DNA of 64,000 bases from Eledone cirrhosa (taxonomy: Eukaryota): positions 45,384,001 to 45,448,000 of the forward strand of contig OZ024745.1 of NCBI GenBank assembly GCA_964016885.1. The letters run 5' to 3'. Below are positions 7,356 through 40,038 of the stretch, piece after piece. The stretch's first letter is position 1; every line of letters starts with the position of its first letter. Under the pieces are notes generated by a model. It was not told the origin of the DNA. It saw only the letters and a list, made by a program, of their open reading frames with translations, and did no database searches. The position numbers and the translations under genes are program-made.

Positions 7356-7552
7356 GAAAATGTTTAACCCCGACGGCAGAGTTCAAGCCGTTTCGACAGC
7401 TATTTCTGGATTTCTGCACTGAAATAGCCGTCGAAACGGCATGAGCTCTGTCGTCGGGGTTAAACATTTTCCTATTTCTCACTCTACTACCCTAAGTATT
7501 GAGTACTCTGGTGCGTTATGGTCCATCTGGTTCCTTACCACACTTCCTTCGT
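7356..7552 (+). mobile_element. Short fold-back element in (TA)n/(GA)n (family F1)
   Basis: Inverted repeat 7356-7471 plus an ~80-nt unpaired tail; relatives at 17336-17531 (opposite strand) and 37648-37792. Confidence 0.75.
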
Positions 7553-8624
7553 TATATATATATATCCTGAGCTTTGGGACTGACAGAATCATCTGAAATA
7601 TGCAGCCCAAGAACCATTTGTACCTAAATGACAGAATGACAGCATAGTTGGTGTAATATGTGTACACACACACACACGCACACGCACACACACAAACACA
7701 CACACATACACACAAACACACACACATACACACACACACGCACACACACAGACTCTGCGTAGTGTCATGAAAAATTTAGAGTTACATTATAAAGCCTAGT
7801 ATATACTGTATACTTCTTAAAGCTAGATTACATCCTATGAATTCTGAAATGTTATTAAGTCATGTGTCTTCATGTAAATGTTTGTTACATACGAATCGAA
7901 ATGGAAATTGTGTATTCATTGATGTGAGGATTGATGTGTTGAAAAGTTCAGGAAATAATTTGTCAAACATTTCCATGAACGACAGGATTATTTAATGAAT
8001 GAAATATTTCGTTAAAACTATCTCACCTACTAATTGATGTTAGACGAAATTGAACATCATCGTTTATATTTCATTTAATTTCTTTCCCTTCTTTCATTTT
8101 CTTTCTTCCTTTTTTCTTTTTTCTTTCTTTCTTTCTTTCTTTCTTTCTTTCTTACATTCACACACACACACACACACACACACACACACACACACACACA
8201 CACACACACACACACACACACACACACACACACACACACACACACACACACACACAATACTAATATCATATTACATTTTTTTTTTTTAATAATCTTTTGT
8301 TATATTCAAATTATTCTAGTTCATTCGTTATTTAACTCAATTCCATCATGCAATTTCTCACTCCGTTAGGAACCTCGAAGTAATCTACCAAGCTTCATCT
8401 CACTGATTATGCAATCTCGGTTTAAAAAGTGAGGAATATGACAGAAGTTATTTTGTAGCAATTCCAAGAACTGGGAATTATTTGAAATTCAACGACGGCG
8501 ACGATGACGACAACAACAACAACAATAACATCAATAACATGAATAATGATTTCTTTATTAACCACAATAATTATTATTATTATTACTATCAATAACATTA
8601 ATAATAGTAATAATAATAATAATT

Positions 8625-8794
8625 CTTTCTACTTTTGGCACAAGGCCAGCAATTACCCAATGCATTACTGGTACTTTATTCTATCGACCCCGGAAGGATG
8701 AAAGGCAAAGTTAACCTCGGCGGGATTTGAACTCAGATCATACAGGGAGGTAACTCTTTTCTTCAAAGCATGGCATCCGATCCTCTACCGATAC
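8625..8794 (-). mobile_element. tRNA-derived SINE (family A), 5' end missing next to the LINE tail
   Basis: Matches 38863-39043 (ggcacaaggccagcaa...ggatgaaaggcaaag..aacctcggcgggatttgaactcag). Confidence 0.8.
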
Positions 8795-9090
8795 TACTAA
8801 TAATAATAATAATGATTTCATTTATTGGCCACAAGGGCCGACATATAGGGGACAATACAAAAGACTGGGACAGTGGGGTTTTACAGAAAAATCGAGTAAA
8901 CAATATGAATAACAATAACAAAGTAACAATAACAAAGTAACAATAAAGTAACAATAAAATTAGAAGCAAAAATTCTCCAATAGGGGGGATGACCACTTAG
9001 GGTTCGCTCAGGTACCCCACCAGTCCTGAACGACCCGACGCTTCGAGAGTACCCTGGAAGGGCACCCCTCTCCTCCTCAAATTTACCTAC

Positions 9091-38239: not shown

Positions 38240-38862
38240 CCGAATTGGTGTGGAAAAGAAAGGTACACATGTTGTTGAAGTGTGTTTTACTCCGTCTATA
38301 TATCGATATGTCCAGCTCCTGGTTGTGTTGTTATTCCTCTGAGGAACAACCAACATATACTCAAAATCTCTATATATATACCTATACATATATATACCTA
38401 TACATATACAAACAGTCACAAACACACACATATATATATATATAAATATTGAATGAGAAAATTTCGTCGTAACTAATGCCAATCTATTTCCGATAAATAG
38501 GCTTATACTCCCCGTTATTACTAATCTATTTTAGTTACGGCGAATAAACATAAGTAATTCGGATAAACGGAACTGCATTTAGAGGGGAATCTTAGCAGCT
38601 AACTAGATTGATAAATTTCTTATAGGTTAACAGTGCATTGATTCAATGCTACCCTATGTGACACAATATGCCTATAGATGTTAGCCACCACTGTATATTT
38701 AGAGAGGTGGAAACACATAATTCTTATATAATTGTTTTTTGTAGACACTAATTTCAATCATTTGTAGGCATTCATGAGTGACCCTTTTAACCACCCTCAC
38801 AGAAACTGCAAATGAGCGCACCATTAAGAGAGATCAGTTGCTAGGCTGATTATAGAAATATT

Positions 38863-39043
38863 TGTTTCTACTTTAGGCACAAGGCCAGCAATAACCCAGT
38901 TCATTACTGGTACTTTATTTTGTCGACGTCGTAAGGATGAAAGGCAAAGTCAACCTCGGCGGGATTTGAACTCAGATCGTAAAGGGACGTAACTATGCTG
39001 GAAAGCATGGCGTCCGACCCTCTACCGATACTGCCAATCTACC
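38863..39043 (-). mobile_element. tRNA-derived SINE (family A) with 18-bp TSD
   Basis: Near reverse complement of 29264-29445; gctgattatagaaatatt at 38845-38862 and 39044-39061. Confidence 0.9.
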
Positions 39044-39801
39044 GCTGATTATAGAAATATTGTTGGGTAAAATATCTATAAATATCTATAAATATTTTCT
39101 GTATTTTCTCAATTGAGACAAAACACTGTTAACGCCCCAGTGATTTAGTATTGAGTATCATCTGTTTATTTTATGGTTTCAAATTCCACTGGGTAAAACT
39201 TTACTATTAATTCAGCCTCGGTGGTTAATATATGTACTAATGTTAAACTAAGGCGATTCAGTAGACTATACACGTCTTCAGCAAATATGAAATACCTTTA
39301 TGCACTTTCATGTCACTGTTGACTTCGACCTAGGATACATCTGTGGACTCATTCATTGTGTTATTTTTTTCCACCAGACAATGCGTCTCGGTCAATCAAG
39401 GAAATAAGATCCCCCTTTTTTCATATAAACACAATGTGGCTTACGTCAACAACTGGATGTCTATATTAATCTAAATGGTTAATACTCTATATTCAATGCA
39501 CGTAAGTAAAAGCATTCAATGATGAAACGTGTGTATGTGTGTTTGAGTGTGTGTATTTGTGAGTGAAGAAGTGTGTGTGCGTGTGTGTGTGTGTGTGTGT
39601 GTGTGTGTGTGTGTGTGTGTGTGTGTGTGTGTGTGTGTGTGTACGATGAACGGAATAATTGTTTATTTTTGCCATACCTTACATTTGAAATTTACATTTA
39701 TTAAAGTTATACAAACATTTCTCTCTCTGACATTTTAATTTACCGCGCCCGCGCATACCCCCCCCCCATATATATATATATATATATATATATATATATA
39801 T

Positions 39802-40038
39802 GAAAAAGAAATTGAAAATACAATTGGAGTCTTTAAGAAGATTTATTTACAATAACCTTACTGGTTTCAAAGTTTAATGATTTTCAAAGTTACGTTAGAT
39901 AGAGAGATGTATGGCTATACGGTGATGTATCTTATTTCTCCATCTCACGTAACTTTCGAAAATCATGCATTTGTGAAACCGGTAAAGACTCTAATTGCAT
40001 TTTCAACTCTTTTTCCTATATTCCTATCTACTTTCTTA
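39802..40038 (+). mobile_element. Diverged fold-back element related to F5
   Basis: Arms 39802-39835 / 39983-40016 resemble the F5 arms. The inner inverted repeat carries T(T/C)GAAAA...GAAAC..GTA on both strands. Flanked by (TA)n. Confidence 0.7.

Follow-up and report, generated by a model that had tools for sequence, protein, structure and literature searches.

Short fold-back repeats in the (TA)n tracts of an Eledone cirrhosa locus: ends of Penelope-like elements and a retrozyme-like tandem family

A stretch of 64,000 nucleotides of Eledone cirrhosa DNA (assembly GCA_964016885.1, contig OZ024745.1, positions 45,384,001 to 45,448,000 of the forward strand; G000:C5:45384001-45448000), here called the window, was analysed within its 3.0-Gb genome. 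The window has a GC content of 36% and is dense in (TA)n microsatellite. Short repeats of five families (F1 to F5), many of them folding back on themselves, are inserted in these tracts, and a broken Penelope-like element (PLE) is present in the same window. The locus raises the question of what such repeats are and how they were inserted. A preliminary description, made from the letters alone, had taken them for independent non-autonomous RNA elements that carry hammerhead ribozymes, are mobilised in trans by PLE proteins and would be mis-annotated as miniature inverted-repeat transposable elements (MITEs). Four of the families, F1, F2, F3 and F5, were found to be pseudo-long terminal repeats (pLTRs) or terminal regions of PLE families bearing open reading frames (ORFs), and not independent elements. 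F4 is, by its structure, a non-LTR retrozyme that bears the insertion footprint of a PLE. All five are probably products of one Penelope-type insertion process, four as ends of coding elements and F4 as a non-coding tandem RNA that borrows the enzymes.

The five families and their parent elements

Masked self-BLAST of the window confirmed five mutually dissimilar families, all located in (TA)n and at the places first described. Copies were counted with exact motifs (F1 tail, 9,080; F2 tail, 2,169; F3 tail, 707; F5 tail, 6,757; F4 ribozyme, 4,189), the figures being lower bounds on motif copies and not numbers of elements. For F4 a general DNA search had given a misleading 2 loci against the 4,189 matches of the exact pattern, and a motif taken from the F5 tail of the window, a private variant, matched itself alone. 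End maps were built from copies sampled in chromosome order through a tail motif (70 copies of F1, 70 of F2, 30 of F5 and 30 of F3). The 70 tail-anchored copies of F2 replaced a best-match sample whose query began at the 5' pile-up site described below, after which the pile-up was weaker; the F3 map was built with chaining across a homopolymer. The F4 sample consisted of 60 loci picked by a motif inside the ribozyme. Positions written -n are distances from the distal 3' end of a family, and positions 0 or +n are counted from its 5' pile-up site. The copies in the window are listed with clade labels assigned from motifs.

7356..7552 (+): F1a, short copy of the pLTR of a Hydra-type PLE; the inverted arm occupies 7356-7411, the sense arm runs on to 7475 and 77 nt of tail follow (7476-7552)
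17337..17531 (-): F1b, short F1 copy; sense arm begins at the 5' pile-up site (17473), inverted arm 17473-17531 stops 77 nt before the distal end
24394..24619 (+): F2a, short pLTR copy of a Hydra-type PLE; inverted arms 24394-24561, 100% complementary, tail to 24619
30917..31285 (+): F3, short copy of a Neptune-type pLTR; of its two arms the inverted one is long (30917-31152) and the sense one short (31157-31251), with 34 nt of tail
31394..31553 (-): F2b, F2 copy with one arm only, which passes the pile-up site by 28 nt on its upstream side
32879..33338 (-): F4, insertion of a non-coding tandem family of ∼555-nt units (retrozyme-like); long arm 32879-33236 ending at the distal site, short arm 33237-33338 ending at the proximal site, tail ∼122 nt
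33992..37392 (-): window PLE, Hydra-type, 5'-truncated and broken, with reverse transcriptase (RT) and C-terminal GIY-YIG endonuclease; ORF 36983-34866
37648..37791 (+): F1c, diverged F1 copy; tail and part of one arm, no fold-back
37806..38106 (+): F5a, short copy of a Neptune-type pLTR, in which an interrupted inverted arm (37806-37894) is followed by the sense arm, beginning at 37893, and by 62 nt of tail
39802..40036 (+): F5b, older degenerate F5 relative; common motifs, with arm, spacer, arm and tail judged by eye

The layout of arm, spacer, arm and tail that had been described as common was present in seven of the nine cited copies, including the degenerate F5b as judged by eye; F1c and F2b are without an inverted arm. 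The start of the F4 insertion was corrected from 32950 to 32879 and its tail to ∼122 nt, while the family and the fold-back stood as described. The window PLE has the like layout that had been noted for it, with 308 nt of its 3' region repeated in inverse orientation at the 5' end (37085-37392) and an 89-nt tail (33992-34080) followed by (TA)28.

Four of the five families were traced to coding elements. F1 lies 3' of a Hydra-type RT-endonuclease ORF in loci L323 and L125; a pLTR copy 5' of an ORF was looked for among the F1 copies and none was found, the 3' position being the only one seen. F2 stands directly 3' of a Hydra-type ORF in four loci (L022, L233, L320 and L321) and 5' of one in L247. 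F5 was found 3' of a stop-free frame of 770 aa in L315 and on both sides of the ORF in L318, and F3 just ahead of the ORF in L330 and L319. These sequences are placed at ORFs for RT and GIY-YIG endonuclease and are therefore pLTRs. The supposed absence of ORFs thus holds for the short copies but not for the four families, which are continuous with ORFs. In the four families the sequence upstream of the pLTR is a 3' untranslated region and an ORF in place of a further short unit; they do not form tandem non-coding units. The short copies are 5'-truncated and have an inverted 5' copy and a one-sided tail.

Parents were assigned to clades by motifs. The window PLE has the Hydra motifs RWR and DKT, the linker CNYRNRVDC, CxxC and CxH; Pfam returned no family for either of its two pieces, and its assignment was made by these motifs. 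The linker of the F1 parent reads CNCPDRSTC, and the F2 parent has SDKT and CSCRKPEAC. Features of the Hydra clade (an RWK-like motif, DKT, a CxCx5C linker, no CCHH motif and a (TA)n target) were thus found in the window PLE and in the F1 and F2 parents. In the F3 and F5 parents Pfam identified RVT_1 and GIY-YIG, and GLKF, DKG, a Cx4CxxC linker, cysteines between GIY and YIG and two histidines were recognised; the F5 parent matches the strict CCHH endonuclease pattern, and the F3 parent was read by eye. By these motifs the F1 and F2 parents are of Hydra type and the F3 and F5 parents of Neptune type.

Several further features of these elements were recorded. Neptune-type RT-endonuclease frames free of stops, of 770 and 796 aa, are present at L315:1217-3526 (+) and L330:535-2922 (-), which suggests recent activity. 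L318, L319 and L330 have a separate upstream frame of 330-420 aa that overlaps or abuts the RT-endonuclease frame. At L028 (G000:C4:91968724-91971864) a Hydra-type N-terminal RT-coding region is joined straight to the F2 start site, its extra G included, which looks like the result of a template switch. L143 (G000:C1:14250742-14253776) contains a minisatellite with units of ∼50 nt from part of the F1 tail. Further pieces of the window PLE family lie at 6465-7029, 7116-7223, 37411-37505 and 61083-62570 and include tail-only fragments and a 137-bp duplication of the 3' region. A degenerate TA-flanked fold-back at 44086-44387 (arms 44134-44197 and 44321-44384, 80%) is probably another old PLE end.

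Fixed ends, inverted arms and 5' starts

Arm length varies between copies while the tail end is fixed. The distal end was exact in 55/70 copies of F1, 44/70 of F2 (67/70 within 5 nt), 29/30 of F5 and 28/30 of F3. The end of the inverted arm was likewise fixed, at -77 in 38/50 F1 copies, -64 to -67 in 30/38 F2 copies, -62 in 14/19 F5 copies and -34 in 3/4 F3 copies. The tail is the gap between these two fixed ends and measures 34-77 nt in F1, F2, F3 and F5. In run-on copies the distal end is followed by templated TATATA (F2, F5) or TAT (F3), and proximal ends likewise precede TA.

Insertion by the following steps would produce this architecture. A GIY-YIG endonuclease would nick both strands of a (TA)n tract; cleavage and extension of both strands have been demonstrated in vitro for a Poseidon PLE (PMC11167929). 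Reverse transcription would then be primed by each nicked end, at one or the other of two fixed positions inside the RNA; this is suggested by the fixed ends and by the TA-rich micro-homology that follows both sites where copies of F2, F3, F4 and F5 run on. Both cDNAs would extend to the 5' end of the RNA and join head to head; the geometry is that observed, arm, spacer and arm with a tail as long as the two sites are apart.

The short, non-coding form and the long inverted repeats of these elements are those of MITEs or other fold-back DNA transposons, an identity that may practically be dismissed, as the preliminary description had proposed. Its statement that symmetric terminal inverted repeat ends are missing was borne out: one end is offset by 34-122 nt, inner junctions are variable and many copies are one-armed. 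Four families are moreover continuous with RT/GIY-YIG ORFs, and these links rule the identity out. The flanks are (TA)n runs, in which a target-site duplication is unreadable.

Rare variants were common to the two arms of one insertion more often than to arms of different insertions (F1, 19/93 vs 3.4%; F2, 12/72 vs 6.9%; F5, 11/19 vs 19%; F3, 10/11 vs 12.5%), which implies one template for both arms, or later homogenisation. The sharing would also follow if the second arm arose by snap-back of a single cDNA or was homogenised later, the proximal end being an endonuclease cut that resolved the hairpin. Recurrent junctions of F3 and F5 are perfect palindromes with a 1-nt centre, as snap-back would leave them, and the tail has been ascribed to endonuclease-mediated resolution (PMC8557442). 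This origin is nevertheless unlikely. The longer arm may be either of the two, gaps, fillers or unequal inner ends are seen at many junctions, and in some insertions the extra G described below stands on both arms. Arms of F4 often stop at unrelated points of the unit, which is impossible by snap-back, and two RT start sites bounding the tail have been demonstrated in vitro (PMC11167929).

In F1, F5 and partly F2 the 5' ends of the short copies were concentrated at particular sites. For F1, 45/70 sense arms start within -8..+10 of the sequence TT/TC-AGTC, as do 43/50 inverted arms within ∼10 nt, and 9/70 sense arms reach further upstream. F5 copies start at 0..+10 in 16/30 cases and never at -23..-1. 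For F2, 26/70 start at -4..+14, and 10 extend at least 298 nt upstream. These sites are not the predicted ribozyme cuts. Extra bases were then counted at the junctions. Where F1 arm ends were non-templated the next base was G in 11/19 (98 copies, 28 of them the best tail matches; p 0.024), and direct junctions of F2 with (TA)n had an extra G in 5/7 (p 0.003 vs background). Among 100 F2 motif matches listed and read by eye, G stood at -1 in 10, nine of these in copies ending there and one after a partly templated stretch, and in 0 of the ∼75 long copies.

Pile-up sites in or just before the structured hammerhead region might instead mark a stop of the RT at RNA structure, or a ribozyme cut, but this is quite unlikely to account for them. 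Only 3/70 F2 starts lie within 3 nt of the predicted cut and 2/93 F4 5' ends within 4 nt, and a stall would not give the extra G of F1 and F2. All four pile-up sites (TT/TC-AGTC in F1, CC-ATTA in F2, TC-AGTT in F3 and CC-AGAT in F5) have a pyrimidine-A step, and those of F1 and F3 match the initiator consensus TCAKTY. Hammerhead self-cleavage is not what sets the ends of the short copies, because so few F2 starts lie near the cut and because the first half of the ribozyme is missing from most short F1 copies. It was also considered whether another ribozyme, with its cut at GUC, sets the 5' ends of F1 and F2; no supporting fold was seen by eye.

Transcription starts inside the pLTR are known for Penelope (PMC2377424) and for Chlamys elements (PMC8557442). 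A capped RNA starting in the pLTR may, with fair confidence, be regarded as the template of the F1 and F2 short copies; the pile-up by itself would suggest the same for F5. In F1, F5 and partly F2 the RT would then run out where transcription begins, 140-215 nt upstream of the distal site, and would sometimes copy the cap as an extra G.

The short copies of F1, F2, F3 and F5 could also be SINE-like (short interspersed element-like) solo-pLTRs that propagate themselves, whose RNA would come from their own loci or from 3' pLTRs and which would be mobilised in trans. Short copies are far commoner than ORF-bearing ones in F1 and F5, every 3' pLTR possibly keeps a promoter, as was shown for Drosophila Penelope (PMC2377424), and RNA from a 3' pLTR would yield an identical product. 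One exact fold-back junction recurs often in F3 and in F5. Self-propagation is accordingly a possibility of some standing, if a tentative one. The sequences are, however, colinear with the ends of ORF-bearing elements, the short copies lose sequence upstream of the start site and an informal look saw no subfamily private to them. The junctions of F1 and F2 vary between copies, and the fold-back is therefore remade at each insertion. The independence claimed in the preliminary description thus fails for these four families in that they are PLE ends, although solo-pLTRs remain an option that fits them and a retrozyme-like nature fits F4. Its link between the repeats and PLEs was borne out.

Hammerhead folds and the tandem family F4

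Hammerheads had been reported in F2, F4 and F5 from core motifs. The bare core (CUGANGA or UUGANAA with GAAA) was matched 37 times in the window, whereas 30 block shuffles of the window gave 27.6 on average and 38 at most, and it is thus at chance level. A descriptor requiring helices I-III was run at three settings against the same background, in which matches averaged 0.07-0.17 and never exceeded 1. F4 was recovered at every setting, F5a and both arms of F2a at one setting each, so that full folds are present in these three copies; F5b and F2b gave zero matches. In an Rfam scan of the window, which gave 216 matches, hammerheads were absent among the 150 listed. The folds predicted for the cited copies are:

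24484..24521 (+): F2a, predicted type I hammerhead; passes at a single setting, that with a 2-bp helix II; mirrored on the minus strand at 24436-24473
33074..33155 (-): F4, predicted type I hammerhead; descriptor and compensatory changes among subfamilies
37933..37968 (+): F5a, predicted minimal hammerhead of type I; passes where helix I is set to 3 bp

The predicted F2a fold has a CUGAGGA core, a 2-bp helix II with U.U at its base, a palindromic helix III and a GUU cut site. That of F4 has a CUGAUGA core, a 5-bp helix I, a 6-bp helix II with a long loop, a palindromic helix III and a GUU cut site, and that of F5a the U3-A8 core variant (UUGAAAA), a 4-bp helix II and a GUA cut site. The U3-A8 variant is shared by F1 and F5. 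In the fold of the F1 parent helix III has 5 bp, the predicted cut site is GUC, and the long loop II contains the putative start site. The F1 copies of the window are without half of the hammerhead, F1a having the 3' half only, and the hammerhead-like stretch of the window PLE has a non-canonical core. A relaxed descriptor matched 23/30 loci of F4, 20/30 of F5 and up to 21/70 of F2, some of these being neighbouring repeats; of 5/70 matches for F1, 3 were the F1 ribozyme in long copies and 2 were neighbours.

Hammerheads were also met outside the five families. An element flanked by TA at 38129-38370 (-), not listed before, has a full type I hammerhead fold at 38185-38239, with a CUGAAGA core and a palindromic TATATA helix III; it passed at 3/3 settings (match at 38234), and related motifs occur in other loci. 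The descriptor gave 283 matches in 1.38 Mb of partly overlapping loci vs 1 in 0.42 Mb of shuffled sequence. Flanks of the loci held at least 40 distinct hammerhead sequence types, several with a T.T pair beside the core, and elements were nested in one another's (TA)n flanks. By this descriptor hammerheads are common in the sampled repeats of this genome.

F4 consists of head-to-tail units of 554-556 nt, with at most 3 full units per arm. The unit has a GC content of 36%, and its longest ATG frame is 27 aa. Across the 60 loci, 85/93 complete arm ends coincide with one of two sites, which are separated by 122 nt and each followed by (TA)n. Inverted pairs have one end of each kind in 29/32 cases, an irregular end in 3 and two like ends in 0. 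The 5' ends are found all along the unit, with 3-16 in each tenth of it and no more than 8 in any stretch of 11 nt. No PLE ORF adjoined an F4 arm in the 60 loci, tblastn matches in 4 of them being separate neighbours. The predicted circular fold of the unit has an energy of -158 kcal/mol vs -114 +/- 6 for 40 shuffles (z -7.2). The ribozyme helices covary in F4: with 7 sequences from 4 subfamilies, 96% of 98 pair cells were kept with 10 double-sided changes in helices I and II, where 0/500 shuffles were as good and slid controls kept 31-51%, although the kinship of the sequences inflates such counts. Older F4 subfamilies of 70-79% identity and like layout occur at L293, L310, L226, L264 and L213, often beside young F4 copies.

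F4 was likely copied into the genome by Penelope enzymes, to judge from the footprint. Its template would be a circle or a multimer, so that arms can, as observed, stop anywhere and exceed one unit, and the hammerhead would release monomers from tandem transcripts. A linear multimeric transcript is a possible template. Units are alike within a locus (1.4% apart as the median of 11 pairs, one of them at 20%, vs 7.5% between loci), as would be expected of a satellite-like pLTR derivative that entered as a monomer and then multiplied in place by unequal crossing-over, with no circular RNA involved; such a route has been discussed for Xenopus retrozymes (bioRxiv 10.64898/2026.07.22.740005). Arrays amplified in this manner are rather improbable here, since those of F4 end exactly at two fixed sites beside (TA)n, start anywhere and occupy both inverted arms, and since the ribozyme helices covary.

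The fullest account of the five families is that F4 is a circular ribozyme RNA copied in rolling-circle fashion by a PLE RT/endonuclease dimer, from both nicked strands of a (TA)n target and with each strand starting at one of the two fixed sites, and that the F1, F2 and F5 fold-backs are twin-primed capped PLE RNAs on which the RT ran to the cap. We favour it by a modest degree. The following points weigh against the Penelope-type insertion process proposed for all five families. A few F1 loci (L031/L038, L053 and L181) have a tail on both arms. The 5' pile-up of F3 comprised only 2/30 copies of the tail-anchored sample, while a site-anchored pattern finds many junctions, and roughly three quarters of the 100 F2 motif matches listed extend past the pile-up site as judged by eye. 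Evidence for the extra G was uneven: in 2/30 best-match F2 loci (L022 and L023) the G is part of a long context; direct (TA)n junctions of F1 had 11 G, 22 C and 5 A in 38 (p 0.17); and at F5 direct junctions 13 G, 13 A and 74 T were counted among 100 of 157 listed (p 0.19). The relaxed descriptor found an F3 hammerhead in 0/30 copies, core and helix II being present and helices I and III missing, and F2 and F4 have a U.U or C.A pair beside the core that may lower activity. Choice of F4 loci by the ribozyme motif biases the map of their 5' ends, and in a BLAST search against all sampled loci for an autonomous partner of F4 only F4 relatives matched. Finally, the start site of the green anole Poseidon element PAc is described as not homologous to its target (PMC11167929), as against the TA micro-homology found here, which is known from genomic sequence alone.

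Neighbouring repeats and comparison with known systems

Other repeats of the window are as follows; the frames of the first were read by eye.

9577-14290 (-): broken non-LTR retrotransposon with ORF1-like, AP-endonuclease-like and RT parts
21922-22135, 59041-59160, 59269-59475 and 62594-62792: SINE-like family of ∼210 nt in (TA)n, with a weak Rfam tRNA match at 59093-59150 (E 0.09)
8610-8801, 29263-29450, 38849-39045 and 1-96: second dispersed SINE-like family of ∼190 nt
41084-41693 (once) and within 48829-52053 (four times): unit of ∼600 nt, 95-98% identical

On which enzyme mobilises animal retrozymes, and on how PLEs form the inverted arm and tail, the literature considered offers co-occurrence, pLTR similarity and a single in-vitro system. 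F4 offers a countable footprint and two exact positions that can be tested with a PLE protein, and stop-free Neptune frames are present in the same genome. If the rolling-circle account is true, F4 copies are a genomic record of PLE enzymes inserting animal retrozymes, and the F1, F2 and F5 fold-backs allow PLE start sites, and the two sites at which the RT starts, to be located from DNA sequence only. Four abundant repeats of MITE-like appearance should in any case be annotated as PLE ends.

The literature was searched for a cap-derived G or a PLE footprint in a retrozyme and none was found; most subscription papers, Repbase and the bioRxiv supplements lay outside this search and may already hold the families. 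As described for the Hydra clade (PMC8557442), the window PLE and the F1 and F2 parents have a C-terminal GIY-YIG endonuclease, RWK-like and DKT motifs where seen, a CxCx5C linker, CxxC and CxH, and likewise a (TA)n target, a pLTR hammerhead, an inverted 5' copy and a tail. They differ in tail length, which is 64-89 nt in the Hydra-type elements here against the 30-40 nt stated there for PLEs; the window PLE further differs from the clade in one replaced linker cysteine and a non-canonical hammerhead core. The F3 and F5 parents are like the Neptune clade in GLKF, DKG, linker, endonuclease cysteines and histidines and Pfam domains; F3 differs in having the core without helices I and III.

For PAc, two internal RT start sites bounding the tail and extension of both strands have likewise been reported (Frangieh et al. 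2024, PMC11167929), and there too hammerhead cleavage is described as not setting the ends. The minimal PLE hammerheads of Cervera and De la Pena (2014, PMC4209133) resemble those found here in being type I, with a palindromic helix III, the U3-A8 variant and an extra base before helix II. F2 and F4 differ from them by an additional unpaired base after helix II, and the F1 parent by its 5-bp helix III and long loop II. Motif pairs on opposite strands, 100-700 bp apart, were ascribed there to truncated PLEs, which is the architecture found in the window.

F1, F2, F3 and F5 are not tandem units and hence not retrozymes. F4 is like the animal non-LTR retrozymes (Cervera and De la Pena 2020, PMC7229834; Li et al. 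2026, bioRxiv 10.64898/2026.07.22.740005) in being made of tandem units that do not code and have a single type I hammerhead each, in its low GC (36%) and a copy number in the thousands, in the strong self-pairing predicted for it and in coexisting with PLEs; its unit of ∼555 nt compares with 150-450 bp described for them, a range and not a strict criterion. PLEs were named as candidate mobilisers of retrozymes in PMC7229834. In the Xenopus study (bioRxiv 10.64898/2026.07.22.740005) the link to PLEs is argued from co-occurrence and pLTR trees, in a main text that does not use the word 'tail'. To the argument from co-occurrence and pLTR similarity in the retrozyme literature, F4 adds a PLE footprint of two fixed ends, tail, inverted arm and TA target. 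Non-autonomous Chlamys elements such as MRC1 (PMC8557442) are, like F4, ORF-less and have pLTRs and multicopy head-to-tail insertions; they are green-algal, belong to a clade with an N-terminal endonuclease, are described as lacking canonical hammerheads and are similar to autonomous families at the 3' end, whereas a partner of F4 was not found. The architecture of the short copies is thus published PLE biology, to which the F4 footprint is a useful addition; what is added lies in the rule of one end of each kind in F4 and in the start-site and extra-G evidence from F1 and F2.

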